Shown: positions 4,276-64,000 of the stretch, one piece after another | Layout of the letters: each line of letters begins with the position of its first letter | Position numbering within the stretch: the stretch's first letter is position 1 | Assembly: GCA_039934355.1 (NCBI GenBank) | Contig: JBDTMI010000014.1 | Location: forward strand, 9,141 to 73,140 | Direction of reading: 5' to 3' | Length of the DNA: 64,000 bases | DNA from: Gemmatimonadales bacterium | Lineage (GTDB): Bacteria; Gemmatimonadota; Gemmatimonadetes; Gemmatimonadales; GWC2-71-9 | The notes under the pieces: model-generated | The model's database searches: none | What the model was told of the DNA's origin: nothing | What the model saw: the letters and a program-made list of their open reading frames with translations, nothing else | Translations under genes and position numbers: made by a program

Positions 4276-5181
4276 TCAGGGCGCGCTGTCTGGCAGCAGC
4301 GAATCCACCGGTGCCGGGTCGATCTCCTGCACGGTGGAGTCGATCATGGCGGCGGAGTCGATCGCCTCTGGTGACGGAGGCGGAGGGAGTGTGCTGTCCG
4401 CCTCCTCCGTCTCCTCTTCCGCCCTTGGCACCTCGAGCACCTCGCCCCGCATCCGGCGCAGGATCAGGTTCTGCCGCCAGCGCATGCGGCCCGGGCGGAG
4501 CCCGGGGTTGGACCGGAGCGGGAAGGGGAGCGACCCGGCAAGCGCCGCGGCCTGATCCCGGGTGAGTGTGCGCGCGCTGCGATGAAAATACTTCTGGCTC
4601 GCCGCCTCCACTCCCCAGACGCCGTCGCCCAGCTCCACCACGTTGAGATAGAGCTCCATGATCCGTGACTTGCCGAGCGCCGCTTCCAGACGCCAGGTGA
4701 TCACCGCCTCCTTGACCTTGCGCAACGGATTCCGCGAGGCGGAGAGGTAGAGATTCTTGGCGAGTTGCTGGGAGATGGTGCTCGCACCGCGGAGCTTGTC
4801 TCGCCGTTCCCAGGCCTTTGGGAGCACGGTGAGTAGCTCCCGCCGGTCACGCTCGGAGCTGAAGTCGAGCTCCGCGCGACGATACCCCAGCGCCCGGGCC
4901 AGCGAGAGATAGTCGATGCCGCCGTGGGAGAGGAACAGATTGTCCTCCCCGATGATCACCGCTTGTTCCATCGCGGGCGCGATCGAATCCAGCGGCACGG
5001 GATGGTAGAGGATGCCGGGTGCCTCGGACCGTCGGGTTGCCGGATCGCCGGACCGCATCGCCATGAACGCGGTTCGCGCCGGCCAATGGGTGCGATACCA
5101 GCTCGGTGGGGGCCAGACGGCGAAGAGCCAGAAGACGAAGGCGGCGGCGAGAGCGCCGACGCCGAGGAGCGCCCGCCGCAT
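4276..5181 (-). CDS. mtgA: monofunctional peptidoglycan transglycosylase (GT51)
   Basis: EDxxF motif 1, GASTISQQLAKNLYL, RKVKEA, ELYLN. N-terminal TM anchor, no transpeptidase domain. Confidence 0.88.
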   Translation of the reverse strand: MRRALLGVGALAAAFVFWLFAVWPPPSWYRTHWPARTAFMAMRSGDPATRRSEAPGILYHPVPLDSIAPAMEQAVIIGEDNLFLSHGGIDYLSLARALGYRRAELDFSSERDRRELLTVLPKAWERRDKLRGASTISQQLAKNLYLSASRNPLRKVKEAVITWRLEAALGKSRIMELYLNVVELGDGVWGVEAASQKYFHRSARTLTRDQAAALAGSLPFPLRSNPGLRPGRMRWRQNLILRRMRGEVLEVPRAEEETEEADSTLPPPPSPEAIDSAAMIDSTVQEIDPAPVDSLLPDSAP

Positions 5182-5184
5182 CGA

Positions 5185-6057
5185 TCAGCGGAGCAGGGTC
5201 ATCACGAGCAGCGAAGATTCGCGGGCGGTCACCTGCTGTCCGATCGAGGGCAGCACGACCGTCACCTCGGTGAGGCGCCGGCCTTCCACGTGCCTGACCA
5301 GGGCATCCGCCCCCAGCTCATAGGTGAGACTGTCCACGCCCGACCCGGAGACGGTGATTGCCTGACCGAACTGCCTGCCCTGCCCCGACGCGGTCCGGTT
5401 GCGGGTGACGTCGATCAACAGCGTTCCTGCCGTCGTCGGCTCCGACTCCGCTTGCGCCGTGATCAGGGCTCGTTCAATGGCATCGAACGCGCTGACTCGC
5501 GCCGGTCCCGACGTGGAGTCGGTCCACGATGCGTTCGGCGTGGCCCCGGTGAGTGGCAATGGCGGGAAGAGCAGGGCGAGCTGGTCGCGTACCTGGTCGC
5601 CCACCAGCGACCCGCTCCCTCCGGTAAAGTTCTGCACCCGTCCGTTCGGCAGTCGCAAGGCAGTCCAGCGCGCTCCGCGGGCGCTGTCCAGCGCGGCCGA
5701 AGGCAGACCCTGCATGGTGTCAGCGCGGACCGAATCAACCTGGGCGGTGAGTCGGGTGCCGGAGTCGCTGGCGATCCAAGTGATCGTCACGTACGCAGTG
5801 CGCCCCAGCACCGTGGTCTGCGACTCTCCGCTCGGCATCACCGCGACGACTGAATCCCGGCGCTGGAGGGCATAGCGCTGGATCCCTGCGCCTCCCCGCG
5901 GATAGTGGATCGGAGCGGTGCCCACCGGATCGGTGTGCATCGGGTCCATGGTGGCGCGGGGTGGCGCGGGATGCGGCCGGGGGGAAGACGCAGGAGGGCC
6001 GCCCGAGGAGCATCCTGCCAGGAGCAGGAGCAAGGCGACCCACTGTGGACTGCGCAT
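5185..6057 (-). CDS. hypothetical beta-rich lipoprotein
   Basis: Lipobox LLAGC. Similar to the neighbouring ORF (LFPP...WTD). Confidence 0.75.
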   Translation of the reverse strand: MRSPQWVALLLLLAGCSSGGPPASSPRPHPAPPRATMDPMHTDPVGTAPIHYPRGGAGIQRYALQRRDSVVAVMPSGESQTTVLGRTAYVTITWIASDSGTRLTAQVDSVRADTMQGLPSAALDSARGARWTALRLPNGRVQNFTGGSGSLVGDQVRDQLALLFPPLPLTGATPNASWTDSTSGPARVSAFDAIERALITAQAESEPTTAGTLLIDVTRNRTASGQGRQFGQAITVSGSGVDSLTYELGADALVRHVEGRRLTEVTVVLPSIGQQVTARESSLLVMTLLR

Positions 6058-6068
6058 CAATCGCTCGA

Positions 6069-6842
6069 TTACTTCAGCAGGCTGGACGTGCCCTCGACCA
6101 GCACCTTCACCGGAATCGGCTCCGCCGAGAAGGACCCGCTGATCGCCAGGTTCTGGGTGCCGTTGTACACGGCGCGGAGCGTCGTGCCGTCAGGGCCGAG
6201 GTACCAGGTCCCGGTGCCGCCGCCGGTGCCTTCGATTGCCATGGAGCCCTGGGGCCCTTCCTGTGTGCCCGACATCGCCAGACTGGACGCCCCCGCCACC
6301 TGCAGCACCTTGGCGCCGTCGAGCATGCCGCTGGACGCGGCGTAGTTGGTCACCGTGCGCACCGCGAGGCCATTCTTGGTGTTCGATTCCGTCGTGTCGG
6401 TCCAGGTCGCGCCTTCGCGGGTCCCCGGCTTCACCGGCGGGAACAGCGAACGGATCAGGCTCTCGAGGCCCGAGGCAATGGCATTCTCCGTCGAGGAGGT
6501 CAACTCGCCCACCTTGCCGTTGGGCGCCTGATATCCGTGCCAGGTTGTGCCCTTGGCTCCCGCGGTGAGTTCCGGCGGAATCGGTGACCCTTCACCGACC
6601 AGCAGCGAATCCAGCACCGCGGTCAGCGCCTTGCCGCCGGCGCTGTCGATCGTCGTCACCGAAACGAAACCAGTGGTGGAGAGCTCGTTCTTCTGTTCCC
6701 CCTGGCCCAGCGCTGACAGGTCGACCGTCTGACTGGTCTTCAGGTCGATACGATATCGCTTGACTGCTGGCGGCGCGCTCGGCGACCAGGCGGCCAGGGC
6801 AACTACCGTCAGCGATGCGGCGATCCAGGGACGAATCGTCAT
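6069..6842 (-). CDS. hypothetical secreted beta-rich protein
   Basis: ATG 6842 with a GAGGA RBS and a signal peptide. Paralogous to 5185..6057. Confidence 0.75.
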   Translation of the reverse strand: MTIRPWIAASLTVVALAAWSPSAPPAVKRYRIDLKTSQTVDLSALGQGEQKNELSTTGFVSVTTIDSAGGKALTAVLDSLLVGEGSPIPPELTAGAKGTTWHGYQAPNGKVGELTSSTENAIASGLESLIRSLFPPVKPGTREGATWTDTTESNTKNGLAVRTVTNYAASSGMLDGAKVLQVAGASSLAMSGTQEGPQGSMAIEGTGGGTGTWYLGPDGTTLRAVYNGTQNLAISGSFSAEPIPVKVLVEGTSSLLK

Positions 6843-6885
6843 GACTTCCTCTGTGAGTTGGGTACGGGAGGGAGGCCCGCGGGGG

Positions 6886-7119
6886 TCAGGTGCCCGCCGA
6901 CTGGCGCCCCACCTTGGTCTTGCCGAATACGGCGACGAGTTCCACGTCATCGCTGGTCACCTTCAACAGCTTCCAGCCACGCTTGCGCATGTCCTGACGC
7001 CAGCTGATGAGCCGGTCCCAGTCGCTAGCGCTGGTCCGGAAGACCCGGAGATCAGCGACCTGTTCCCATGATTCCGGATAGGGCTTCGTCCGGTCCTGCG
7101 ATGAGGTGTGACGTGACAT
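6886..7119 (-). CDS. small hypothetical protein (77 aa)
   Basis: Protein-like composition (GWKLLKV...LVAVF), same strand as the downstream genes, fills the gap after rnpB. Confidence 0.6.
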   Translation of the reverse strand: MSRHTSSQDRTKPYPESWEQVADLRVFRTSASDWDRLISWRQDMRKRGWKLLKVTSDDVELVAVFGKTKVGRQSAGT

Positions 7120-7192
7120 TTTGACATTTCCGGCAGCGATAACATCGGGAAAGTACCCCCCCGATCGGGGCAGCGGGAGGGGGAGAATGGGA

Positions 7193-7229
7193 GCCGCCCC
7201 CTCCCCGCCAGGGGCGGGGAGGGGGCGGC
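7193..7229 (-). terminator. 17-bp GC hairpin at the 3' end of rnpB
   Basis: GCCGCCCCCTCCCCGCC-agg-GGCGGGGAGGGGGCGGC is a perfect inverted repeat. Confidence 0.6.
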
Positions 7230-7635
7230 GCAGGCCAGACCGTAAGCCGAGTTCTGTTCCGAGCGCACCGACGCAAGCATCGGCACGCTGGGACGGTCAT
7301 CTGTCTGGGACGGCCGTCGCCGGCCGCCTCGAGCAGCCTACCCGCGGCTCGGACGGTGTGGGTCACACCTCGCCGCTTATTTGGCCTTGCTCCGACTGGG
7401 GGTTACCGTGCCACCGCTGTTGCCAGCGGCGCGGTGGGCTCTTACCCCACCATTTCACCCTTACCGCGAGCGGATTTGACCCCGAAGGGCTGCCATCCGG
7501 CACGAGGCGGTTTGCTTTCTGTTGCCCTGTCCGTCGCCTTGCGGCGCCCAGGCGTTACCTGGCAGTCTACCCGATGGAGCTCGGACTTTCCTCGAGCCGG
7601 TTGCCCGACCCGCGACCATCACGTCCGACCTGCGC
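7228..7635 (-). ncRNA. rnpB: RNase P RNA (bacterial type A)
   Basis: Minus strand has GAGGAAAGTCCGAGCT (5' side of P4) and ACAGAACTCGGCTTA (3' side of P4). P1 ends pair (GCGCAGGTCGGAC / GTCTGGCCTGCGC). A -10-like TATGTT lies at 7640-7645. Confidence 0.95.
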
Positions 7636-7651
7636 CGGGAACATACCCCCC

Positions 7652-10600
7652 TCAGCCCGCCCCTTCCACCTGGGCCAGGCGAGCCCGCACCCGGTCGATC
7701 AGCGGGGCGAGCGCACTGTCGGCCTCGGCCCACTGCTGCAGCGCGTCGCGGTACTCCTGCCGGGCCAGATCCTTGTGCCCCTGGCCTTCGAGAATCCTGC
7801 CCCGGAGCAACCGCGCCTGCCCCAGGAGCAGCCAGCGGATGTCGGGTGACTGGGAGGAGAAGTACACCGGGTTGAATCCCTCGAGCACCTTGAGCGCCCG
7901 CGCGTCGTCCCCCAGCTCATGCCAGGTATTGGCGGCGATCAGCATCCGGAAGCCCCACCACTGCGGTCGCATGAAATAGATCTTGTCAACGGCGCTGTCC
8001 GGCAACTGCAGCAGCGCCCTGGCCGCGGCCGAGTCCCCCCGGCTGAGCGCACTCATCGCCCGCAGCTCGGGCGGGGTCTCGCCACCATCGAGCGCCTCGA
8101 GTTCGGTCAGTGGCCCGGCGTCGGCCGGATTCTGCAGGAAGATTCCGATCGCCGCGGCCCAGCCAAAGTTGGCAATGGAACCGCGCTTGGTGCGCGGCGT
8201 CTTCCGCGCGCTGTCGGCGACGGCCGTCCAAATCTGTCGCAGCACCGGACCCTGGGCGCCGAGGGCGGTGTACAGGTGGCTGCGATAGAGCTGGCCCAGC
8301 AGGGTGGAGCCGTCGAGCGGTTGAGAACCGAGCGCTTCGGGAAACCAGGCGGCGCGTACCTCGGCGGAGAGTTCCATCGCCTGGCGGGCACGGTTCACCT
8401 GGCCGGCCCAGCCCAGGACGTTTGCGCCATTGGAGATCTCCTCGACCGTCTCGAAGGGCAGTCGCCCGCCGTCGAATTGCGCCGCCTTCAGGCTGTCCAC
8501 CGCTTCTGCCACCGCGCGCGCCGCTTCCAGATAGTTGCCCTGCTGGGTAAGCACCCGGGCCCGGACGAACGGGAGGTCGGGTCGGGCCGCCCCGCCCGTG
8601 GCGTGCGTCAGCCGGTCGATTTCGTTGAATGCGGCGTCGTACTGCTTGCCGGTGGAGAGGGCGTAGATCAGCGCGTTCTGCGCGTGAATATTGTCCGGCT
8701 GGTGCGCCAGCCACTCATGCGCGCTGGCGACGCCTTCCTCCCGCGCCCGGCGGGTGGCCGCCGCGAGGCGGAGGGAATCGAGACCGAGGTAGTGGCTCGC
8801 CTCCGAGGTGGCCGTGCTGCCGGCGCCCGCGCCGTTCGATCGTCGCTGCACCAGTGAGTCGCCGGGGAGCAACGCGATGCCCGGCCGGTCCTCGGCCGCC
8901 CACCGGTAGATCTGGGCCACATGTTCGTACGCGAGGTAGTAACCGGGATCGAGCGCGATCGCCCGCTTGAAGGCGCGGAGGCTGGTGGTGAATCGGTTGC
9001 TCATGGTGGCCGGCGTCGGATCGTGGAAGCTCACGTCCGCCAGCCCGTACCAGGCATCCGCGTCGGTCGAATCCTTGCTCAGCAGCGCGCGATACAGCGT
9101 CTGTCCCCGGGCATAGTCACCCTCGAGGAAGTGCCGGTACGCCTCGATCATCGCCCGGTCGTGTTCCGGCAGCCGGTCCACGAACGCCGTCGCCCGCTGA
9201 ATGGCAAAAAGGCCGATCGAATCGTGCTCGCCCGCAATCCAGCCGCGCGCCAGCGAGAGTTTGTAGTACGCCAGGCCGAAGGTGGAGTCGAGCTCGACGG
9301 CGTGTCGCAGCAGTTGCTCCGCCCCCGAGAGGTTCCACCGGCTCAGCTCTTCGATGCCGCGCAGGTACGTGCGATACGCCTCGAGCGATCCGGTGGTGGA
9401 TGATGCGATGCTGGCGGTGACGCCGCTCGGCGCCCCCGAGAGATTCAGCAGCCGTGCCGCCAGCTGATCGAACAGCGGCCGCACATCGGCCCCGGACTGG
9501 CCTTCGACCTGGGCCCCCTCGATCCGCGCACCGCTGGCCACGTCGTAGACCCGCGCGACGAGCTGCAGCGAATCGCCGATCCGGGTGTACTCGCCCATCA
9601 CGACCGTCCACACGCCCGCGTCACGGGCGAGCTGGCGCGCCATGCTGAGACCGACGGAAGAATCGGCATCGAGGTGGCGCCGCTCGAGCAGGTCATGCAG
9701 CCGTTCGTGGTCCACCACGGCGAGGTCACGCCACTGGGAAAGATTGAGCGCGAGCATGCTCACGCTGCCGTCGCGCAGCCACGCCACCGCAGGATCGGCC
9801 CGCACATTGGTGAAGGGCAGGACCAGCATCGAATGCCGTGGATTGACACCCGCCGGCGGGCCGCTCGGCGTGAGCGCGACCACGGCGGTCACCAGCAGCG
9901 CCAGCACGGCAATCGTGGCACCGAAGAGCCGTCCTCTGCGCCGGGTGGGAGCCGCCGGGCTGGGCAGCGGCGACGCGCCGAGCAGCATGGCGCGCAGGTC
10001 GGCCCCGCTCTGCCACCGGATGGAGGGATCTTTTTCCAGGGCCCGCATCACGACGTGCGCCAGCGGCCCCGGGGTCTCCGGCCGGTGCGAGAGGATCGGC
10101 GCCGGCGCCTCCGCGAGATGCATCGAGGCCACCGCGGCGGCGGTCGGGGCGCGAAACGGCGGCCGACCGGCGAGCATCTCGTACGCGACCACGCCGAGGG
10201 CGTAGAGATCACTGCGCGCGTCGACGGTGTCCCCGGCCGACTGTTCCGGGCTCATGTATGTCGGGGTGCCGACTGCTATGCCTGCCGCGGTCCGCAGGCC
10301 GCTGCTCTCCACCGCCATCGCCCGGGCGATCCCGAAGTCGGCCAGCATGGCACGTCCGGTCGCTTCATCGAGCAGAATATTTTCCGGCTTCACGTCGCGG
10401 TGCACCAGGCCGGCGGCTCCGGCGGCGTGCAGGGCGTCCGCCAGATCCAGCACGATCCGGGTCACGTCCGCCACCGGCAGCTGCCCGTCGCGCAGGAGGC
10501 GCTGGCGCAGGCTCACTCCCGGTACGTAGTCCATCACGTAGTAAAAAAGCCCGGTGGACTCCCCCGCCGTGTGAACTGCAACGATGTTCGGATGGCGCAG

Positions 10601-10819
10601 CCGAGCGATCATGCGCGCTTCGGCGAGAAAACGCTCCGTGATGCTGTTGTGGATCGCCAATTCGGGATGGACGACCTTTACGGCGACCGGGCGGTCGAGG
10701 GTGGTGTCCCGTGCGAGGAAGACCACGCCCATGCCACCATGCCCCAGCTCCCGCTCGATGCGATACTGGGCACCGAGCACCACCTGCAGCCGGCTGAGGA
10801 GTTCCGAGGGTGCGGTCAC
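7652..10819 (-). CDS. membrane Ser/Thr protein kinase (Hanks type) with TolB-N-like and TPR-like C-terminal region
   Basis: LGHGGMGVV, VAVK, HRDVKPEN, DFG, GTPTYMSPEQ, one TM helix, then helical repeats. GTG 10819 chosen because TAACTT lies 7 nt upstream; the ORF track starts at TTG 10828. Confidence 0.9.
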   Translation of the reverse strand: MTAPSELLSRLQVVLGAQYRIERELGHGGMGVVFLARDTTLDRPVAVKVVHPELAIHNSITERFLAEARMIARLRHPNIVAVHTAGESTGLFYYVMDYVPGVSLRQRLLRDGQLPVADVTRIVLDLADALHAAGAAGLVHRDVKPENILLDEATGRAMLADFGIARAMAVESSGLRTAAGIAVGTPTYMSPEQSAGDTVDARSDLYALGVVAYEMLAGRPPFRAPTAAAVASMHLAEAPAPILSHRPETPGPLAHVVMRALEKDPSIRWQSGADLRAMLLGASPLPSPAAPTRRRGRLFGATIAVLALLVTAVVALTPSGPPAGVNPRHSMLVLPFTNVRADPAVAWLRDGSVSMLALNLSQWRDLAVVDHERLHDLLERRHLDADSSVGLSMARQLARDAGVWTVVMGEYTRIGDSLQLVARVYDVASGARIEGAQVEGQSGADVRPLFDQLAARLLNLSGAPSGVTASIASSTTGSLEAYRTYLRGIEELSRWNLSGAEQLLRHAVELDSTFGLAYYKLSLARGWIAGEHDSIGLFAIQRATAFVDRLPEHDRAMIEAYRHFLEGDYARGQTLYRALLSKDSTDADAWYGLADVSFHDPTPATMSNRFTTSLRAFKRAIALDPGYYLAYEHVAQIYRWAAEDRPGIALLPGDSLVQRRSNGAGAGSTATSEASHYLGLDSLRLAAATRRAREEGVASAHEWLAHQPDNIHAQNALIYALSTGKQYDAAFNEIDRLTHATGGAARPDLPFVRARVLTQQGNYLEAARAVAEAVDSLKAAQFDGGRLPFETVEEISNGANVLGWAGQVNRARQAMELSAEVRAAWFPEALGSQPLDGSTLLGQLYRSHLYTALGAQGPVLRQIWTAVADSARKTPRTKRGSIANFGWAAAIGIFLQNPADAGPLTELEALDGGETPPELRAMSALSRGDSAAARALLQLPDSAVDKIYFMRPQWWGFRMLIAANTWHELGDDARALKVLEGFNPVYFSSQSPDIRWLLLGQARLLRGRILEGQGHKDLARQEYRDALQQWAEADSALAPLIDRVRARLAQVEGAG

Positions 10820-10992
10820 GGTAGACAAGTTAGGCCTGTGGTCCGGAGACGGCCAATCACTCCAGCGGGCGCACGTCCGATCCTGAGAGACGCTTTGGGT
10901 ACCGCGAAGGTTGCAGGACGCGCCGCCGCCTGCTTGACCCCCAGTTGAGCCTCAGGGGCTAGTCTGCCCGCGACCCCTCCCGCGAGCCCCGC

Positions 10993-11853
10993 ATGCCCGG
11001 ACCCCTTGCCCTCCCCACCGCCGTCGAACCGGTCATCGCTGCCGTCCTGCGACCGGAGGAACGCTCCCGAGTCGAGGCCGCGGGCTCGGGCTGGTTTTCC
11101 CTGGTCCACCGCGAATCCATCCCCGATGCTATCCGGGCGGTCCGGGAGCGCCCCGTCGACGCCGTGCTGATCTCGGTACACCAGTGCGGCGATCGCGCCC
11201 TCGAGGCGCTGCCCGGCCTGGTGGCCGGCTTCCCCGGCATTCCCACGGTCGCCCTGGTTAGTCGGCATGATTCGCAGGGCTCGGAGGCGCTGCTCCAGCT
11301 GGGGGCGGGCGGCGTGCGGCAGGTGGTCGATGTGACCGGTCCCGAGGGCTGGCAGCGGCTGCGCCAGGTGCTGGGTCAGCCGGCCACGCGCGACGCGGCA
11401 CGGATTCAGGGTCCCGTCCTCCTGGCGCTGGGCCCCATCGCACCCGATGCCCAGCTCTTTTTCGAGGTCCTTATCCGCCTCGCGCCCGACCTGTCCACCG
11501 CGCTGCAGCTCTCCGATCGGCTGGCGGTCCGCTGTACCACGCTGATGTCGCGCTTCATGCGGGCCGAACTACCGTCGCCCAAGAGCTACCTTGCCGCCAT
11601 GCGGCTGCTGCATGCGACGCTGCTGTTCGAGCGGCCGGGACACACAATTGCGGATGTGGCGTACCGGCTGGACTACTCCTCACCCCAGAGTTTTGGTCGC
11701 CACGTCCGCGCCCTGCTCGGCATCACGACCTCCGAACTGCGCCGGCGTTTCCCATTTGACCTTGCACTGGAGCGGTTTATTGCGTTGATGGTGGAGCCGT
11801 ACCGGGCCGAATGGGCCGGATTCCGGCCGTTGGGAAACAAGGATGAGCGGTAG
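10993..11853 (+). CDS. AraC-family regulator with degenerate receiver-like N-terminal domain
   Basis: C-terminal AraC HTH (IADVAYRLDYSSPQSFGRHVRALLGIT). N-terminus follows the REC beta/alpha pattern. Confidence 0.85.
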   Translation: MPGPLALPTAVEPVIAAVLRPEERSRVEAAGSGWFSLVHRESIPDAIRAVRERPVDAVLISVHQCGDRALEALPGLVAGFPGIPTVALVSRHDSQGSEALLQLGAGGVRQVVDVTGPEGWQRLRQVLGQPATRDAARIQGPVLLALGPIAPDAQLFFEVLIRLAPDLSTALQLSDRLAVRCTTLMSRFMRAELPSPKSYLAAMRLLHATLLFERPGHTIADVAYRLDYSSPQSFGRHVRALLGITTSELRRRFPFDLALERFIALMVEPYRAEWAGFRPLGNKDER

Positions 11854-11869
11854 CACAGGGCCACAGCAA

Positions 11870-11891
11870 CGGGGGCCCGACCGGGCCCCCG
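11870..11891. terminator. GC hairpin between the convergent AraC gene and pyrE
   Basis: CGGGGGCCCG-ac-CGGGCCCCCG; no clear U tract. Confidence 0.4.
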
Positions 11892-11959
11892 CAGGGTATC
11901 CCGTTCGTGCCCCCGACTCGCAGGTCGAACAGCTATCGCCTACCGCACACCACCCGGAG

Positions 11960-12514
11960 TTACTTCAGTCCCAACCGCGTGGCAGTAGTGAGCACAACCA
12001 CCCGATGCCCTGCCTTCTCCAGCGCCGCCCGGCCCCCCTCTTCCCGGTCGACCACCGCCAGGATGCCGACCACCTGACCGCCAGCTTCCCGGATCGCGTC
12101 GATGGCCTTGAGCGCCGAGCCACCGGAGGTGATCACGTCCTCGACTACCAGGACCTTGTCGCCCGTACGGAAGTTGCCTTCCACTCGGCGCGCGGTGCCG
12201 TGTGCCTTGGTTTCCTTGCGGACGCTGAACGCGTCCAGAATTGGCGGGGCGGCGACACTGGCGGCGGCGATCGCGTAGGCGACCGGGTCCGCGCCCATGG
12301 TGAGCCCGCCGACGGTGTTCGGGGCCCAGCCTGCGTCGCGGAGGGCGGCGAGGCCGAGTCGGCCGATCAGGATCAGACCCTCGGCCGACATCGTCGTGAG
12401 GCGGGCATCCACATAGAATTCGGAGGTCCGGCCGGAGGCCAGCACGAAATGGCCGGTCCGGACCGAGCGCGCGAGCAGCAGTCGGTCGAGGGCGGCGCTG
12501 TCGGTGCTGGTCAT
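11960..12514 (-). CDS. pyrE: orotate phosphoribosyltransferase
   Basis: GHFVLASGRTSEFYVD, RKETKAHG, VVEDVITSGGS, VVDREEGG. ATG 12514 overlaps the kinase stop (ATGA). Confidence 0.93.
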   Translation of the reverse strand: MTSTDSAALDRLLLARSVRTGHFVLASGRTSEFYVDARLTTMSAEGLILIGRLGLAALRDAGWAPNTVGGLTMGADPVAYAIAAASVAAPPILDAFSVRKETKAHGTARRVEGNFRTGDKVLVVEDVITSGGSALKAIDAIREAGGQVVGILAVVDREEGGRAALEKAGHRVVVLTTATRLGLK

Positions 12515-13398
12515 CGGCCAAAAATGTTCTGGAGGAAGCTCTTCCGTTCGCCGGTCTGGCGGAGTGCGGTGCACAGACCGGCGCAGAACTCGTCCATTGT
12601 CTTACTGCGGACAGCCAGGTCCCGCGCCAGCCCGGCGGTGATCGCCTCTTCCACCGGGTTGGGGAAGCGCAGACCCTTCACCGCCTGGTTGATAGGCACC
12701 GGCGGTTCGGTCAGCAGCTGCTGGAAGAGCTCGCGCGGCGAGCGGCCGGTATAGGGCAGGGTGCCGGTCAGCAGGTAGTAGGCGATGGTGGCGAGGCTGT
12801 AGACGTCGGCCTGGGCGCTCACCAGCTCCCCGGACAGTGCTTCCGGGGCGACATATTGCAGCGTCCCGACGAAGAACCCGGTGCGCGTCAACCGCTCCTC
12901 CGGCTTGACGTCGGTGTCCCGGGCGATCCCGAAGTCCAGCAGCACCGCCCGCTGGCTTTCCGGGTTGTACATGATGTTCGCCGGCTTGAGGTCGCGATGA
13001 ATGATATTCAGGGCGTGGGCCGCCGAGAGCGCCCCGCCAATCTGCTCGATGATCGAGGCGACCAGCGCTGGCGCGAGCCGGCCGGAGCGGCTGGCAAAGC
13101 GTTCGAGCGATTCGCCGTCGACCCATTCCATGGCGAGGTAGTACAGATCCTCGGTCTGGCCGTAGTCGTAGGTCTTGACGATGTTCGGATGGTCGAACCG
13201 CGTGCCGAATTCCGCCTCCCGCAGGAAGCGCTTGATCGCGACCGGGTCCTGCGCCAGTCGGGTGCGCAGCACCTTCATGGCCGCGAGGCCGCGGTCGGGG
13301 TGTTCGGCTTTGTATACCGTGGCCGTCCCGCCTTCACCGACGTGCTGCAGAAGGCGGTAGCCGGCGACGGTGCGGCCGATCAGACTGTCATCGCTCAT
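12511..13398 (-). CDS. stand-alone cytoplasmic Ser/Thr protein kinase
   Basis: GEGGTATVY, AMK, HRDLKPAN, DFG, GTLQYVAPE. No TM or accessory domain. Confidence 0.92.
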   Translation of the reverse strand: MSDDSLIGRTVAGYRLLQHVGEGGTATVYKAEHPDRGLAAMKVLRTRLAQDPVAIKRFLREAEFGTRFDHPNIVKTYDYGQTEDLYYLAMEWVDGESLERFASRSGRLAPALVASIIEQIGGALSAAHALNIIHRDLKPANIMYNPESQRAVLLDFGIARDTDVKPEERLTRTGFFVGTLQYVAPEALSGELVSAQADVYSLATIAYYLLTGTLPYTGRSPRELFQQLLTEPPVPINQAVKGLRFPNPVEEAITAGLARDLAVRSKTMDEFCAGLCTALRQTGERKSFLQNIFGR

Positions 13399-13483: not shown

Positions 13484-14839
13484 ATGTCCCTACGTTTTCG
13501 TCTGACCGGCGCCTGCGCCGTCGTGTTGCTCGCCGGTTGCGGATCCTGGGGCCGGGTCGGATCCCAGCCCGGAACCAAGCCGGGCGAGACGCTCTCTCAA
13601 GTCCTCGATCTGAACGCGGTCTACCGCAAACTCGGTCGGCTCACCGCCGGCGCGCCCCTGCCCTTCGTCGCCGACGTGGCCTTCCTCGCCGGTGCCGGCG
13701 ATTCGACCGTTGCGATCGTGGGACTGTCGCTGGAGAATCGGGCCCTCGCCTTCCAGCGGGAGGGCGAGGGTTTTGCCGCGCGCTACCGGGTGCAGCTATC
13801 GGCGGAGCCGGCGGCCGGCGGGACCGCCATTCAGCGCACCAAGGACCAGGTCGTCCGGGTGACCGTCTTCCAGGAAACCCAGCGGAACGATGAGAGCATT
13901 CTGTACCAGGATGGTCTCACGCTGCCGCCTGGCTCCTGGCGGATTTCCCTGCAGCTCACCGATCAGGTGGCCGGCGCGAGCAAGACCAGCCGGGCGACGG
14001 CGCTGTACGACGTCCCCGCCTACACCGCGGGGACGGTCAGCCCCCCCTACCTCGCCTATCAGTCGCGCGGCCGGGGCACGCGCGCGGCCCCGATCGGCCT
14101 CATCCTGAATCCCCGGGGCTCGCTGGCGTACGGCGGCGACACCGCGACAGCCTATGTCGAGGCCTACGCCATGCCCGGCCCGACGGCGGTGCCCATCTCG
14201 CTCGTCGATGCGCGCGACAGCGTGATCCTGACCGACACGCTGCGCTTCGTTGGCGGGCGCGAAGTCGAGAGTGCCGCCCTGCGCTTCGCTCCCGACAGCG
14301 CGCCCCTCGGCGAGTTGCGCATCCGTCAGGGGATCGGTGCCGCCGCCGAAAGCACCACCGCGATCGTCTCATTCTCGAACAACTGGGTGGTCACCAACTT
14401 CGATGACATGGTCGCGCTGCTGCGCTACTTCCCCGACTCACCCCAGCTCGACTCGCTGCGCAAGGCACCGGTGGCCGAGCGCTCCCGGCTGTGGAAGGCC
14501 TTCTGGCGCGCCAGCGACCCGAACACCGCCACCCCGTCCAACGAACGGCTCGACCGCTATTTCAAGCTGCTGGCCACCGCCAACCAGCGGTATCGTGACG
14601 AGGGGGTTCCCGGCTGGCGCACCGATCGCGGCGAAGTCCTGATCCGTCTCGGCGACGCCGACGAGGTGTTCGACGCCAGTCCCCAGAGCCAGGGGCGGCT
14701 GATCCGGTGGACCTACACCCAGTACCAGCTGGTGATCTACTTCGTGGACGAGACCGGCTTCGGGCGCTACCGCCTGACACCGGCATCGCGCGCGGAATTT
14801 GAGCGGGTTTACGCCCGGGTCAGCCGCATGGTCGAGTAG
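13484..14839 (+). CDS. GWxTD domain lipoprotein
   Basis: Lipobox LLAGC; C-terminal FW..DP...N and GWRTDRG motifs. Confidence 0.88.
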   Translation: MSLRFRLTGACAVVLLAGCGSWGRVGSQPGTKPGETLSQVLDLNAVYRKLGRLTAGAPLPFVADVAFLAGAGDSTVAIVGLSLENRALAFQREGEGFAARYRVQLSAEPAAGGTAIQRTKDQVVRVTVFQETQRNDESILYQDGLTLPPGSWRISLQLTDQVAGASKTSRATALYDVPAYTAGTVSPPYLAYQSRGRGTRAAPIGLILNPRGSLAYGGDTATAYVEAYAMPGPTAVPISLVDARDSVILTDTLRFVGGREVESAALRFAPDSAPLGELRIRQGIGAAAESTTAIVSFSNNWVVTNFDDMVALLRYFPDSPQLDSLRKAPVAERSRLWKAFWRASDPNTATPSNERLDRYFKLLATANQRYRDEGVPGWRTDRGEVLIRLGDADEVFDASPQSQGRLIRWTYTQYQLVIYFVDETGFGRYRLTPASRAEFERVYARVSRMVE

Positions 14840-42251: not shown

Positions 42252-44123
42252 ATGGAATGCTATGACGTCGTCGTGATCGGTGGCGGCCACGCCGGAAGCG
42301 AGGCGGCCCGTGCGGCGGCCCGGCTTGGCGCCCGCACGCTCCTCCTGACCCAGAATCTGGAGACCATCGGTCAACTGTCCTGCAACCCGGCGATCGGTGG
42401 GATCGCCAAGGGTACCGTCGTGCGCGAGGTCGACGCGCTCGGGGGGATCATGGGCCGCGCGACTGACCGCGCCATGATCCAGTTCCGAATGCTCAATCGC
42501 TCCAAGGGTCCTGCCGTTCGCTCGCCACGCGCTCAGTGCGATCGCGGACTCTACCGGCGAGCGGTGCGTACGCTGCTCGAACAGGAACCAGGTTTGGATT
42601 TCGCGCAGGGCACGGTCGCCGGTCTTGTCATCCGTGCGGGTAGGGTCGAGGCGGTCGTTACTCGCGAGGGGACTCGCATCGCCACTCGAGCGCTTGTGGT
42701 CACCGCCGGCACGTTTTTGCGAGGCCAGATTCATGTTGGCAGAGATGCAGCGATTCCGGGAGGGCGCGCCGGTGATGCTTCCTCGGTTGAACTCTCACAA
42801 GCTATTGCAGCACAAGGCATTACAGTAGAACGATTCAAGACAGGTACTCCCCCACGCCTGGACGGACGGAGCATCGATCTCGAGCGACTTCCGCGACAGG
42901 ACGGGGACACCGAGCCTTACTGGTTTTCCGTTCACGCGCGTGCGCCTCGCCTTCCCCAACTCCCCTGCTACCTCGCGTGGGCAGGGAGCGAGGTGAAGGC
43001 GATTGTCGAGCGTGAACTGCACCACTCGGCTCTCTATGGGGGCATGATCAGTGGTCGTGGTCCTCGCTACTGCCCTTCGATCGAGGACAAGATCGTCAAG
43101 TTCCGCGAGGCAGAGCGCCACCAGTTATTTCTGGAGCCGGAGGGACTGGAGACGAGCGAGCTCTACCTCAACGGTCTTTCCACCTCTCTCCCTGCAGCCA
43201 CACAACTGGAGCTCGTGCGGGCCGTTCCGGGATTGGAGCGGGCACTCATAACTCGGCCCGGCTACGCCATCGAGTACGATTACTTCCCGCCAACGCAACT
43301 GCTTCCGACGCTCCAACTCAGGGACTGCGCCGGGCTCTACTTCGCCGGACAGGTCAACGGGACGACTGGCTACGAGGAAGCCGCCGCACAGGGGATCATG
43401 GCGGGGATGAATGCCGCGCTCACTGCTTCCGGCCGTGCGGCAGTCGTGCTGCGGCGCGATCAGGCGATGATCGGAGTATTGATCGATGACCTGGTGACAC
43501 GTGGTGTCGACGAGCCGTATCGGCTCTTCACCTCGCGCTCCGAATTTCGACTCCTTCTGCGTCAGGATAATGCGCTCAGGCGCCTGCTGCCGCTGGCTGA
43601 GCAAATCAACCTGCTCGATCAGGCGGAGCTGGAGGCCGGGCGAGAGCGACTATCCCAGGAGGAGCAGGTGCGTCGGGAGGCTGACGATATCACCCTTACG
43701 CCTGAAGATGTTAACGCATTTCTCGAGGCTAGTGATTCGACCCTGATAACGGAGCCGGTCCGGATTTCCGACTTGGCTCGCCGCCCGTCGGTCCCACTCC
43801 GAGGACTGCTTGAGGTCGCTGGTTGGCGAGGTGAACCGGACGCTGCGGAATGGCCGGATATCGAGTTCAAGTACGAAGGCTATCTCAAGCGGGAACAAGC
43901 GGCCGCAGCGCGCTTGGCCGCGCAGGAGGACTTCCTCCTTCCGATCGAGCTACCGGTCATGTCCTTTCAGACCATCTCAAATGAGGCCCGCGAAAAGCTC
44001 CTGGCTCGGCGGCCGCCCACGATTGCGAGCGCAGGTCGCATCCCCGGAATCTCACCCAGCGACCTCCAGAATCTTGTCCGTGAGACGCTCAAGTGGAGGG
44101 CCGGGAAGGCCGCTTCGAAATAG
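42252..44123 (+). CDS. mnmG: tRNA U34 carboxymethylaminomethyl modification enzyme MnmG (GidA)
   Basis: GGGHAG, SCNPAIGG, RFKTGTPPR, GPRYCPSIEDK, GQVNGTTGYEEAAAQG, EPYRLFTSRSE. Confidence 0.97.
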   Translation: MECYDVVVIGGGHAGSEAARAAARLGARTLLLTQNLETIGQLSCNPAIGGIAKGTVVREVDALGGIMGRATDRAMIQFRMLNRSKGPAVRSPRAQCDRGLYRRAVRTLLEQEPGLDFAQGTVAGLVIRAGRVEAVVTREGTRIATRALVVTAGTFLRGQIHVGRDAAIPGGRAGDASSVELSQAIAAQGITVERFKTGTPPRLDGRSIDLERLPRQDGDTEPYWFSVHARAPRLPQLPCYLAWAGSEVKAIVERELHHSALYGGMISGRGPRYCPSIEDKIVKFREAERHQLFLEPEGLETSELYLNGLSTSLPAATQLELVRAVPGLERALITRPGYAIEYDYFPPTQLLPTLQLRDCAGLYFAGQVNGTTGYEEAAAQGIMAGMNAALTASGRAAVVLRRDQAMIGVLIDDLVTRGVDEPYRLFTSRSEFRLLLRQDNALRRLLPLAEQINLLDQAELEAGRERLSQEEQVRREADDITLTPEDVNAFLEASDSTLITEPVRISDLARRPSVPLRGLLEVAGWRGEPDAAEWPDIEFKYEGYLKREQAAAARLAAQEDFLLPIELPVMSFQTISNEAREKLLARRPPTIASAGRIPGISPSDLQNLVRETLKWRAGKAASK

Positions 44124-44152
44124 CTTACGGCCCTTCTGCGGTGCCATGAGGG

Positions 44153-44168
44153 TGTTTCACGTGAAACA
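44153..44168. promoter_or_regulatory. parS centromere site (perfect palindrome)
   Basis: TGTTTCACGTGAAACA matches the bacterial parS consensus and lies upstream of parAB. Confidence 0.93.
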
Positions 44169-44210
44169 CCTCCGCCAAGGAACCACGTTTCAGCACCGCC
44201 TCGCGCCCGC

Positions 44211-44226
44211 TGTTGCACGTGAAACA
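44211..44226. promoter_or_regulatory. parS site (second copy)
   Basis: TGTTGCACGTGAAACA differs from the first site at one base. Confidence 0.85.
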
Positions 44227-44360
44227 CCCCCAATTGTCGACTCGCCATTTCGCCGCTGGGCCTGCAAAGCTATATTCAAACGTTTCGAACTTTGGTGCAA
44301 TACCGATGGATAATAACCAAGTTCTAATATTGTAAGTCACACAACAACAAAGACTTATAA

Positions 44361-45170
44361 ATGGCTAGAATCATCGCCATCGCGAATCAGAAGGGTGGCG
44401 TCGGCAAGACCACGACGGCGGTGAATCTTGCGGCCTCTCTGGCGATCGCGGAGCGGAAGACCCTGCTGGTGGACGCCGATCCGCAGGGCAATGCGACGAG
44501 CGGGGTTGGAGTTCGACGCGACCAGGTGCGCCTTTCGCTCTACGATGTGATGATCGATGGCCGTCCGGTCCACGATGTATTGCTGAACGATCCCAATCTT
44601 CCCTTCCTTGACGTCCTCCCCGCAACCCAGGACCTCGTCGGGGCTGAACTGGAGTTAGTCGAGCGTCGCGATCGAGAGCACGCCCTCGCACGTGCCCTTG
44701 AGCCGGCGCGCGCGACGCACGAATACATTCTCGTGGATTGTCCGCCGTCCCTCGGCCTCATCACATTGAATGTGCTCGCGGCGGCCGATGGCGTGATCAT
44801 CCCGATTCAGTGCGAGTACTACGCACTCGAGGGGATCTCTCAGCTCCTCAACACCGTCAAGCTGGTGCAGCAGAATTTCAACCCCCGTCTCGCGATCGAC
44901 GGCGTGCTGCTGACGATGTACGACTCTCGGGTGAATCTCTGCCGGCAGGTCGCCGCAGACGCCAAGGAATATTTCGGTGCCCGAATGTTCCCGACCGTCA
45001 TTCCCCGGAACGTCCGGCTCGCCGAGGCGCCGAGCTACGGCAAACCGATCCTGCTGTATGACATTCAATCCGTCGGAGCGAAGAGCTATCTGGCCGTCGC
45101 GCAGGAACTCGTGCGGCGAGCGGAAGCGCACACCACGGAGGAGTCCGCACTCCCTGAGGTGACCCAATGA
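44361..45170 (+). CDS. parA: chromosome partitioning ATPase ParA/Soj
   Basis: NQKGGVGKTT, DPQGNAT, DCPPSLG, QCEYYALEG, PRNVRLAEAPS. Confidence 0.96.
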   Translation: MARIIAIANQKGGVGKTTTAVNLAASLAIAERKTLLVDADPQGNATSGVGVRRDQVRLSLYDVMIDGRPVHDVLLNDPNLPFLDVLPATQDLVGAELELVERRDREHALARALEPARATHEYILVDCPPSLGLITLNVLAAADGVIIPIQCEYYALEGISQLLNTVKLVQQNFNPRLAIDGVLLTMYDSRVNLCRQVAADAKEYFGARMFPTVIPRNVRLAEAPSYGKPILLYDIQSVGAKSYLAVAQELVRRAEAHTTEESALPEVTQ

Positions 45171-46036
45171 GTGAATCCAAGCGACTGGGGCGTGGGCTGG
45201 AAGCGCTGCTCGGCCCCGTCTCGCGTCGGGACGCCGATGCGGGTGGGTCGCTTCAGGAGCTCCCGGTTTCAGCGATCCGGCCCAATCCGTACCAGCCGCG
45301 CGCTCGAATTGACGAGCCGCAGTTCCAGGAACTGGTAGCGTCCCTCGAATCCGCCGGCTTGCTCCAGCCGATTGTCGTCCGACGCCACCTCGACGGCTAC
45401 CAATTGATCGCAGGGGAGCGCCGCTGGCGCGCGGCGCAGAGGCTCGGGTGGGAGAAAATCCCCGCCGTCATCAAGGAGGCCGACGACCGAACCCTCCTCA
45501 CCCTCGCGCTGGTCGAGAACCTCCAGCGCGACAATCTGTCGGCGATCGAGGAGGCTACCAGTTACCAGCGGCTTATCGACGAGTTTCACGTCTCGCAGAC
45601 CGAGGTGGCGCGACTGGTCGGACGGGACCGTTCAACGGTGGCGAATGCGCTGCGTCTCCTGAAGCTGCCCTCAGAGGTCACCGTCATGGTGGATGACGGT
45701 CGCCTCTCCGAAGGGCATGCGCGTGCCCTCCTCGGGCTGGGCGACCGGACTCAAATTCTGCGGCTGGCGCAGGATGCGGCAACGCAAGGCTGGTCGGTGC
45801 GAGACCTGGAGGTCAAGGTGCGCGGCGCGCGGCCCGCTACGGCACGGCGCCCCGCCGTGCGACAGCAGGCGCCAGAGCACCGTCGCGTCGAGGATGCCCT
45901 GCGCAAGCGACTTGGCACCGACGTGCGCGTCACGGCCCGCCGTCGCGGGCGAGGGATGCTTGCGATCAGCTACTACTCCGAAGACGACTTGTCCCGGGTG
46001 CTCGATATGATCCTGGGCGAACCGTTCGGGGGGTGA
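45167..46036 (+). CDS. parB: chromosome partitioning protein ParB/Spo0J
   Basis: LGRGLEAL, NPYQPR, IAGERRWRA, ENLQR, HTH with RSTVAN.LRL. Confidence 0.96.
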   Translation: MSESKRLGRGLEALLGPVSRRDADAGGSLQELPVSAIRPNPYQPRARIDEPQFQELVASLESAGLLQPIVVRRHLDGYQLIAGERRWRAAQRLGWEKIPAVIKEADDRTLLTLALVENLQRDNLSAIEEATSYQRLIDEFHVSQTEVARLVGRDRSTVANALRLLKLPSEVTVMVDDGRLSEGHARALLGLGDRTQILRLAQDAATQGWSVRDLEVKVRGARPATARRPAVRQQAPEHRRVEDALRKRLGTDVRVTARRRGRGMLAISYYSEDDLSRVLDMILGEPFGG

Positions 46037-62810: not shown

Positions 62811-64000
62811 ATGCCCCTGGGTAATGATGACTTCCGCCAACTGATTCCGCTGCTCCATCCCCGCACTCGCGTGCAGGACATGGACGTGCTGAAGGCGTGG
62901 TATGAAGCGGTGACGGGCGCGATGCGCCCCGAGCTGCCGGCGGATCTTTTCGCGCTCTGGATTTACGCTCCGGGTGGAGAACCGATCCTCATCGAACCGG
63001 AAGCGCTGGAAGCGGACCAACTCGACGTGCCGCGCGCCGAACCGATGGCCGACCAATTCATGCTCGACGAGCTTGAGGCTCGCATCCGTCGCGCGGGCTA
63101 TGGCTCCGTGCTGTTGCGCCCGATCCGCCATGGAGGTGAAGATGCGGGCCTCATCCTGCTGGCCTCGTTCACGCCGCACGTGTATGGGTTGCGCGCCGAG
63201 GGGTTGATGGACACGGCGACCGATGTGATGGGGCCGATGCTGGGGCGGGTGACGCGGGCGAGTGTGCCGGTCGAGGAGATTGCCGGGCATCACGTGTCGG
63301 CCCCGGAGCAGGAAGTCCCGCACACGGCGACCGATCTGGATAGCGATCACGCGCGTGAAGGCGAGTTGTTCGAGGCGCTGGCCAATGCGATCAGCGGGGC
63401 AGGTACCCCTCGCGACCTGATGCTCGCGTTGTCGTTCGCGCTGCAGCCGATCCTCCCGCACGACGCCTACGAGCTTCTGATCCCTGACTCCGCCGGCAAT
63501 CTGCACTACCGCCTGGGGCTGCATGGTCACGGGGTGCTCTGGGGCGAGCCGGAGCTGGTGGTGCCTCGCCACGTGCTCGATCCATTGCGGCTGATTGGCG
63601 AAGGCGGCGGCCGGCTGATCGCCGACGCGCAAGCCTCCGAGGACACGAGGGTCCCCCTCCTGGTGACGGTTCGCGGTGACGAGGTCCCGCCGCGCTCGCT
63701 GATCGCGGTGCCGCTCCGGGTGGTCGAACGACGCGTGGGATTCCTGCTGCTCGGCAGCAGCGGCCCCGATTTCTACCGCGACGATGACCTGGCGCTGCTC
63801 GACCGCGTCGGCGGGTTGCTCGCGACGCGAGTCGACAGCCTGGTGCTCTCATGGCAGCACAGTGTGTTGAAGAGCCAGTTCGACATGTTGCGCCACATCC
63901 CGATGCACCTTGCGCGTGTCGCTGAGGTGCTGGCGGGGACGCCATTGCTCGGCGAGGGGAGCAAACGATTCGTGGAGCTGGCGAGTGCCGTGCTGCCGAT
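62811..64000 (+). CDS. multi-GAF-like domain protein (3' truncated, not in the ORF track)
   Basis: Open frame from ATG 62811 to the window end. GAF-like segments SVLLRPIRHGGEDAGLILL and SLIAVPLRVVERRVGFLLLGS..FYRDDDLALL. Confidence 0.75.
   Translation, partial: MPLGNDDFRQLIPLLHPRTRVQDMDVLKAWYEAVTGAMRPELPADLFALWIYAPGGEPILIEPEALEADQLDVPRAEPMADQFMLDELEARIRRAGYGSVLLRPIRHGGEDAGLILLASFTPHVYGLRAEGLMDTATDVMGPMLGRVTRASVPVEEIAGHHVSAPEQEVPHTATDLDSDHAREGELFEALANAISGAGTPRDLMLALSFALQPILPHDAYELLIPDSAGNLHYRLGLHGHGVLWGEPELVVPRHVLDPLRLIGEGGGRLIADAQASEDTRVPLLVTVRGDEVPPRSLIAVPLRVVERRVGFLLLGSSGPDFYRDDDLALLDRVGGLLATRVDSLVLSWQHSVLKSQFDMLRHIPMHLARVAEVLAGTPLLGEGSKRFVELASAVLP

Follow-up and report, generated by a model that had tools for sequence, protein, structure and literature searches.

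Receiver–AraC response regulators of the YesN type (Response_reg + HTH_18) keep all residues of the Asp pocket and are paired with a histidine kinase of their own. Pseudo-receivers are defined by the lack of at least one of five pocket residues, and aspartate-less receivers (ALRs) by the lack of the Asp itself (PMC12632262, PMC4395418). In a survey of Asp-less receivers from Pfam, cited here from parts of its text, Ser ranks third among the replacements, at 15% of ALRs, and phosphorylation at the former Asp site is proposed, with the statement that no example is known (Maule et al. 2015, PMC4395418). A 2025 minireview, likewise cited from parts, calls the mechanisms of pseudo-receiver activation and inactivation a mystery and lists covalent modification (GlnR) as one of the few known regulatory routes (PMC12632262). 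Ser/Thr kinases of the Hanks type, covered generally in sections of a 2025 review (PMC12189002), also act on transcription factors. The portion cited here of Wright and Ulijasz 2015 (PMC4601284) gives as examples VirS, an AraC regulator whose promoter affinity rises when PknK phosphorylates it, the Asp-less RitR, a target of StkP, and CovR, phosphorylated at T65 by Stk1. Here we describe a 64,000-nucleotide stretch of a Gemmatimonadales genome (assembly GCA_039934355.1, contig JBDTMI010000014.1, forward-strand positions 9,141 to 73,140; hereafter the window) in which the gene of an AraC-type regulator with a receiver-like N-terminal domain is divergent from that of a membrane Hanks kinase, STK1.

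The regulator is encoded by a 286-aa open reading frame (ORF) at 10993..11853 on the forward strand. A variable N-terminal tail (residues 1–13) leads into the receiver-like domain (residues ~14–130, 11032..11382, inferred boundaries), followed by a linker, an AraC-type helix-turn-helix (HTH; residues 173–252, 11509..11748) and a conserved C-terminal tail reaching to about residue 282. The HTH matches PF12833 (HTH_18) over profile positions 1–80 of 80 (E = 1.5e-13, 51.2 bits, cut-off 33.6) and is found by Pfam in 94 of 94 diverse family members; the family profile also matches the DNA-binding domains of AdpA, SoxS, VirS and GadX in the PDB. On this profile evidence, the protein is a member of the AraC/XylS transcription factors. 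Its family comprises 1139 representatives (50% clusters) at E ≤ 1e-3, with 153 at E ≤ 1e-30, and the few members with a named source are all Gemmatimonadales or Gemmatimonadaceae.

For orthologues and gene order we used the best 80 loci of 565 relatives, all Gemmatimonadales, with orthologues at 62–90% regulator identity. Across 78 orthologues, the receiver-like domain and the HTH have the same mean identity to the window protein, 0.72, so the N-terminal domain appears to be under constraint, being conserved as much as the DNA-binding domain. Neither the window nor any of the related loci holds a paralogue of the regulator, a plasmid search by tblastn gave no match, and no longer protein with a fused N-terminal domain was found in a search that we rate as weak evidence. 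A literature search returned no published description of this AraC family; the supplementary tables of PMC4395418 (ALR sequences, effector domains) might list related architectures. We conclude that this is a real, apparently undescribed family of probable pseudo-receiver–AraC proteins paired with a Hanks kinase.

The receiver likeness was assessed by profile–profile comparison with hhalign. A pattern search of the 80 related loci gave no canonical receiver genes, and the receiver domains of E. coli K-12 were therefore chosen for the profile: CheY, CheB, CreB, ArcA, RcsB, AtoC, PhoB, NarL and OmpR in a set of 9, plus KdpE and DcuR in a set of 11. The N-domain sub-alignment of the family scored 33.0 against the 9 receivers (probability 76.4%, P = 2.2e-5) and 33.5 against the 11 (probability 78.3%, P = 1.8e-5), and the full family alignment scored 36.2 against the 9 (probability 59.1%, P = 9.2e-5). 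All three of these runs pair residues 36–108 with CheY 32–106 and place S61 on D57. As controls, the reversed receiver profile scored 14.5 (probability 0.8%, P = 0.074), 60 column shuffles had a mean score of 9.9 (s.d. 1.9, maximum 17.3), and 8 unrelated locus families serving as decoys scored 10.6–21.5 (probability ≤1.5%). Names of secondary-structure elements used below follow this alignment. Judged by these comparisons, the N-terminal domain is likely to be CheY-like, and its similarity suggests that it is very probably derived from, or sister to, receivers.

Codon 61 (TCG, 11173..11175) encodes the Ser aligned with the CheY phospho-acceptor Asp57, and this Ser is present in 80/80 orthologous loci covering the site. 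Among 94 full-length diverse members, the position is S in 86, A in 4 and G, E, Y or H in 1 each; among 345 wider members (240–420 aa, from 387 family proteins), it is S in 307, G in 25, A in 6, E in 3, C in 1, H in 1 and a gap in 2, with neither Thr nor Asp in any. A second hydroxyl residue, S90, is by pattern the receiver Thr/Ser position at the end of β4 (hhalign places it one residue off T87); it is Ser in 80/80 orthologues covering the site and S or T in 241/345 wider members. The end of β5 has no aligned Lys and carries the family motif GVRxVVD, with V112/D113 opposite K109/P110 in a low-confidence extended alignment. After β1, the window protein reads L19-R20-P21-E22-E23, against a family consensus of L-x-P-x-x-R, and no acidic pair is evident; the alignment register is uncertain at both of these domain ends. 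The domain thus appears to lack the phospho-Asp at the end of β3, the Lys at the end of β5 and the acidic pair after β1 of a competent receiver, which excludes His-to-Asp chemistry. Of the residues by which ALRs and pseudo-receivers are defined, it lacks both Asp and Lys, and it is recognized as a receiver only by profile–profile comparison, not by the PF00072 model.

Conservation and loss within the family both point to particular parts of the domain. The most conserved residues of the N-terminal domain (G104, G107, D113, G119, W120, L123 and R124) lie in the α4–β5–α5 segment, which has the consensus LLxLGxxGVRxVVDxxxPxGWxxLR; D113 is kept in 332/345 and R124 in 341/345 members. A FastTree phylogeny of the 345 members gives Ser as the root state at position 61, with at least 15 changes. 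The largest pure-Gly-61 clade (11 sequences, support 1.0) also shows R24Q (11/11), E28N (11/11), S90G (9/11) and W120L/F/M (9/11), and it keeps H39, G104, G107, D113 and R124. Because they are jointly lost in this clade, R24, D/E28, S61, S90 and W120 would constitute one functional unit, and their loss together with S61 favours a real pocket function, as far as the phylogeny can indicate. The Gly-61 subfamily (P0271–P0294), found outside the window, is a natural ‘pocket-less’ form of the domain. A Ser-His-Asp catalytic triad of H39, S61 and D113 was also considered, as the three are jointly present in 71/94 members; it was dropped, since S61 would lie between the other two in a 2-1-3-4-5 sheet and H39 is variable (L, Y or P in 5/94).

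These results bear on an earlier note on this DNA, made from the sequence and its ORFs, which had aligned the domain with a receiver by eye and read it as Ser-substituted. Its gene coordinates and the Ser61 codon are borne out by the sequence; its remark that the acidic pocket and the Lys were not evident agrees with the missing Lys and acidic pair, as does its statement that His-Asp phosphotransfer is not possible. Its alignment was correct over β2–α4, where hhalign also puts S61 on D57, and the receiver identity drawn from it needs narrowing, with PF00072 scores below the cut-off and the similarity at the level of the CheY clan.

The divergent neighbour, STK1, is a 1055-aa protein encoded at 7652..10819 on the reverse strand. 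Its GTG start at 10819 is supported by orthologues (L001–L003 and L006) that have ATG at that column. The N-terminal kinase domain (~10013–10765) matches Pkinase (E = 4.5e-44, 151.2 bits, cut-off 31.7) and contains the catalytic motifs GHGGMG, VAVK, HRDVKPEN, DFG and SPE; STK1 has the features of a Hanks-type enzyme and, from these motifs, is apparently an active kinase. One hydrophobic segment (residues 298–316, 9872–9928; Kyte–Doolittle peak 2.65) precedes a C-terminal region of ~735 aa that resembles tetratricopeptide repeats (TPR): Pfam TPR matches are all below cut-off, phmmer against the PDB finds designed TPR proteins (E = 7.4e-6), and residues 296–568 are weakly like TIGR04510 (61.9 bits, cut-off 400). 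With the kinase domain N-terminal and a single hydrophobic segment between the two, the TPR-like region is presumably extracytoplasmic.

The pairing of STK1 with the regulator is conserved. STK1 starts 130–283 bp upstream of the regulator, and divergent from it, in 76 loci, and two more (L030 and L051) carry it as fragments in different reading frames. Of the 79 loci that could be tested, 78 therefore have it beside the regulator in divergent orientation; one locus with only 271 bp of upstream sequence (L065) was left out of the count. A further fragmented copy (L067) is already within the 76, and the three broken genes, at ~4600–7800 of their respective loci, are pseudogenes or assembly indel errors. 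The kinase flank is constant while the downstream flank varies; a Pfam scan of two loci farther off shows, in one of them (L044), a convergent gene for Peptidase_S58 and one for DinB after the regulator.

Histidine kinases are missing from this setting. Neither HisKA nor HATPase_c is found among the genes of the locus itself, and HisKA, HATPase_c, Response_reg, PP2C and FHA have no match among the 74 other window ORFs of ≥180 aa. A hidden Markov model of the 11 E. coli receivers likewise had no match among 434 window frames of ≥80 aa (RcsC control, 2.7e-29). Among the ORFs and frames scanned, the regulator has no nearby cognate histidine kinase of the kind that marks a two-component system.

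The two divergent genes share a 173-bp intergenic region (10820..10992), which presumably holds both promoters and any operator. The 28 closest loci share three blocks within it (GGTTGCA, TTGAcc-N-GGTTGAGC and TAnnnT; window 10905–10965), candidate promoter or operator elements, and in 22 loci 34 nt separate GTTGCA from GTTGAG. Loci farther off have lost these motifs, and promoter calling gave no sigma-70-type promoter. A search with the operator pattern TTGACCNNNNNGTTGAGC, which is one base off and missed the locus itself, gave 3 matches, a chance-level result, and the sole internal repeat of the region (CCCGCGAC/GCCC) showed no outstanding conservation in a 29-sequence alignment.

We tentatively favour an explanation in which the regulator is an orphan atypical response regulator, with an AraC DNA-binding domain driven by a strongly diverged CheY-clan domain that is no longer open to His-to-Asp phosphotransfer, and in which STK1 provides the input and a second kinase of the locus, STK2, stands outside the module. 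The regulator would dimerize through its α4–β5–α5 stretch and act on the 173-bp region that it shares with STK1. In the leading hypothesis, the TPR-like region of STK1 would sense a cue outside the cytoplasm, and the kinase would phosphorylate the regulator on Ser/Thr, with the pocket of R24, D/E28, S61, S90 and W120 as the prime candidate site. That STK1 phosphorylates the regulator at all is conceivable from the gene pairing, and we put it somewhat short of probable; S61 itself as the phosphorylation site is quite unlikely. The most specific version of the hypothesis is that the former phospho-Asp pocket has been rebuilt for phosphoserine, with R24 supplying the charge, S61 the acceptor and S90 a hydroxyl ligand, and that STK1 as the direct kinase works the receiver as an allosteric switch through O-phosphorylation; this version is a long shot. 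If it were true, O-phosphorylation of S61 would give a first example of what Maule et al. 2015 (PMC4395418) proposed, in the parts of the survey cited here, but had not observed, and the Gly-61 subfamily would be a kinase-independent offshoot.

Several observations weigh against a kinase-driven regulator. In its main rival, the domain is a phosphorylation-independent pseudo-receiver, a constitutive dimerization or scaffold module that possibly binds a small ligand or an anion; S61 is a small residue required by the end of β3, and the kinase gene is either a target of the regulator, in the usual logic of divergent AraC genes, or an inherited neighbour. Position 61 is a small residue (S, G or A) in 338/345 members, a pattern that a steric role seems to explain no less well than a phospho-acceptor role would, and the absence of Thr together with Gly in 25/345 looks unlike an ordinary site of Hanks-kinase phosphorylation. 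The buried end of a β-strand would also be an awkward substrate for a Hanks kinase, and the window ORFs of ≥180 aa include no PP2C phosphatase or FHA protein. The conserved residues cluster in α4–β5–α5, where most solved pseudo-receivers dimerize unphosphorylated; more generally, most characterized atypical response regulators are orphans and many pseudo-receivers dimerize without phosphorylation, in the sections of the minireview cited here (PMC12632262).

Gene order lends itself to the same account. In one locus (L072, at 7257–8001), STK1 is cleanly absent and rnpB directly abuts the regulator gene, which is intact (293 aa) and keeps S61; the lack of the 3.2-kb kinase gene is a real deletion or an assembly artefact. 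The adjacency of STK1 and the regulator is seen within one order and inside a longer block conserved in related loci (mtgA, two hypothetical genes, rnpB and STK1), and it may be inherited gene order. The intergenic blocks conserved in the 28 closest loci also speak for this rival. Two results speak against phosphorylation independence: the STK1 flank is held in 78/79 loci when the other flank is not, and the joint loss of the five pocket residues in the Gly clade suggests a functional pocket, not a purely steric Ser. We regard this rival as a serious possibility, though short of probable, and keep the kinase-driven orphan regulator as our working explanation.

A more radical rival denies the receiver ancestry: the N-terminal domain would be another flavodoxin-like or Rossmann-like α/β domain, a family of its own, serving as the sensor or oligomerization part of an ordinary one-component AraC regulator, and the match of S61 to D57 would be a coincidence. 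PF00072 has no match to the regulator at E ≤ 0.1 in Pfam, and in a scan of 94 family members, which drew matches from 59 Pfam families, it is missing from the 25 with the most matches; by its sequence, the family is not a member of PF00072. The hhalign match (59–78%) spans 73 columns, with β1 and β5 lacking a confident alignment. As a yardstick, receivers and the OKR_DC_1_N wing domain, two accepted families of the CheY clan, score 31.7 against each other (probability 60.2%, P = 8.6e-5), close to the 33.5 of our domain, whose distance from receivers is therefore comparable to that of another member of the clan. The similarity to receivers would thus hold at CheY-clan level only, a point that also tells against our explanation. 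Weak PDB matches of the N-terminal domain in a profile search are mixed (MurD 0.3, LacI 0.34, 4dad 0.51).

Coevolution leaves the strand order unconfirmed. In a mean-field analysis (420 sequences, Meff 164), several of the top pairs (17–39, 88–114, 62–89, 19–115 and 27–59) fit a CheY topology, and in a block test adjacent strands were not favoured over non-adjacent ones (pairs above the 95th percentile, for example: β3–β5, 6; β3–β4, 2); we set these data aside as too noisy to count either way.

On the other side of the scales, the receiver score exceeds the shuffles (maximum 17.3), the reversed profile (14.5) and the decoys (maximum 21.5), and receivers outscore 5 OKR_DC_1_N wing domains, for which the N-terminal domain reaches 21.4 (probability 8.5%, P = 0.004). 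When isolated N-terminal domains were searched against Pfam, 1 of 5 gave a sub-threshold PF00072 match (E = 0.17, 12.5 bits, cut-off 30.2), which is the sole match in a related fold class and has the same register. The named Atlas neighbours that are listed carry CheY-clan families (Response_reg in 20–29% of members, OKR_DC_1_N and Rv3660c_N; scores 0.82–0.86), and we take them as leads only. On balance, a non-receiver origin seems unlikely.

The soluble kinase STK2 (12511..13398, reverse strand, 295 aa) consists of a kinase domain only (Pkinase E = 3.2e-48, 164.9 bits, cut-off 31.7), with catalytic motifs present and no hydrophobic segment found. Its stop codon overlaps an in-frame ATG at 12514 as ATGA (12511–12514); this ATG is probably the start of pyrE (orotate phosphoribosyltransferase; 11960..12574, reverse strand; TIGR00336, 133.4 bits, cut-off 106.8), and the stop/start overlap suggests an STK2–pyrE operon. 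Of the 42 loci with a pyrE gene, 40 have STK2 directly next to it. The distance from the regulator to pyrE could be judged in 74 loci: it is at most 1 kb in 32 and 1–8 kb in 8, and the other 34 have no pyrE on that flank. As the kinase keeps to pyrE and the distance of pyrE to the regulator varies, STK2 is a companion of pyrE and probably lies outside the module of the regulator. That STK2 instead of STK1 is the regulator's partner is most improbable: its intact catalytic motifs, its convergent position ~650 bp downstream and the presence of pyrE–STK2 within 1 kb after the regulator in 32/74 loci are set against its translational coupling to pyrE, a pyrimidine-biosynthesis gene, and its displacement or absence in the remaining loci. 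Both kinases match the PD-T4-6, mad6 and PglW models, through the kinase domain only, and the regulator matches none of them; a reading of the kinases as anti-phage defence was set aside on context, as rnpB, pyrE and polA make the surroundings a conserved block of housekeeping genes, which argues against a defence island.

The earlier note had proposed a signalling module in which a Ser/Thr kinase controls the regulator. The genes on which it built are as it described them, a divergent membrane kinase with a TPR-like region (Pkinase, the hydrophobic segment at 298–316 and the TPR-like PDB matches) and, converging from downstream, pyrE and a stand-alone kinase (TIGR00336 and Pkinase matches), and its failure to recognize a histidine kinase in the window is matched by the ORF and frame searches above. 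Conserved kinase neighbours, which it named as a check, are found for STK1 and not for STK2, which follows pyrE. Of the Ser/Thr conservation that it looked for at position 61, the Ser part stands, and the absence of Thr and the Gly subfamily do not fit. The proposed module is reasonable for STK1, probably wrong for STK2 and weak as regards S61 as the acceptor.

The window has ~62–70% G+C, and further genes surround the pair. The RNase P RNA gene rnpB (bacterial class A; 7227..7632, reverse strand; 285.2 bits) lies 20 bp downstream of the STK1 gene on the same strand, and a like order is implied in related loci. Beyond it are two adjoining reverse-strand genes for hypothetical proteins of ~290 aa each (5185..6060 and 6069..6950), and an mtgA-like transglycosylase gene (4276..5181, reverse strand) comes next in order. 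The two hypothetical proteins have no Pfam or PADLOC match; they are tandem paralogues, each query cross-matching the other's gene in related loci at ~22–37% identity, and both are kept upstream of the membrane kinase across those loci. At the other end, a gene for a GWxTD-domain protein (13484..14839, forward strand; TIGR04514, 68.9 bits) is divergent from STK2 and just upstream of polA, a position kept in the closer loci. Farther away, the cumulative GC skew has its minimum at ~38–40 kb, and mnmG (gidA), parA and parB lie at 42252–46036, a hint of a nearby replication origin; a DnaA-box consensus search of the window gave 2 matches only, elsewhere than the skew minimum and at chance level. 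A GAF-domain ORF (62811..63998, forward strand) extends past the window end, and any further domain of it would lie outside the window.

Pseudo-receivers are common and their switching is largely unknown, which gives this family its interest. It is large (153 representatives in 50% clusters at E ≤ 1e-30) and invisible to the PF00072 model behind the published surveys. It is a candidate for a receiver-type switch wired directly to a Ser/Thr kinase, for which the Gly-61 clade, with its pocket dismantled, offers a natural control. Should the kinase link fail, the family would still add a new CheY-clan domain to those that regulate AraC factors, from a soil phylum that has been little studied.

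Among described systems, the closest in kind are the ALRs and pseudo-receivers such as RitR, FrzS, HP1043, ChxR and AmiR, with which the regulator shares an Asp-less receiver-like domain joined to an output domain and the lack of a cognate histidine kinase. A conserved α4–β5–α5 surface (PMC12632262, in part) and Ser as a common replacement (PMC4395418, in part) are further points in common. Both surveys are PF00072-based in the parts cited here (PMC4395418, PMC12632262), whereas this family is missed by PF00072, so that neither would include it, and its likeness is at clan level, by sequence. The OKR_DC_1_N wing domain of Orn/Lys/Arg decarboxylases, a CheY-clan domain with no phosphorylation, is also Asp-less and CheY-like, is found among the Atlas neighbours and in AdiA has a Ser opposite S61 by hhalign; the N-terminal domain matches it more weakly than it does receivers (21.4 versus 33.5, probability 8.5%), and the protein context is different. 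Our regulator shares the domain order of the YesN-type regulators, receiver-type domain first and AraC HTH last; unlike them, it has Ser61, no aligned Lys and no histidine kinase in the window.

On the kinase side, the nearest parallel is PknK–VirS of Mycobacterium tuberculosis, also a Hanks kinase with an AraC-family regulator, and the family profile matches the VirS DNA-binding domain (E = 7.6e-6). The differences are that PknK is soluble with a STAND-type C-terminus, that the VirS match covers the HTH only, and that phosphorylation has been shown for VirS, whereas here it is proposed from gene adjacency. Ser/Thr kinase input to receiver-containing factors is also known from the Hanks-kinase targets CovR (T65), VraR, DosR, WalR and RitR (in its DNA-binding domain), in the portion of Wright and Ulijasz 2015 cited here (PMC4601284); those sites are mostly Thr and are found in the DNA-binding domain or in other parts of the receiver, none of them at the phospho-Asp position. 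What is new in this locus is a cryptic CheY-clan domain with an AraC output, paired with a Hanks kinase, within the known theme of atypical response regulators.

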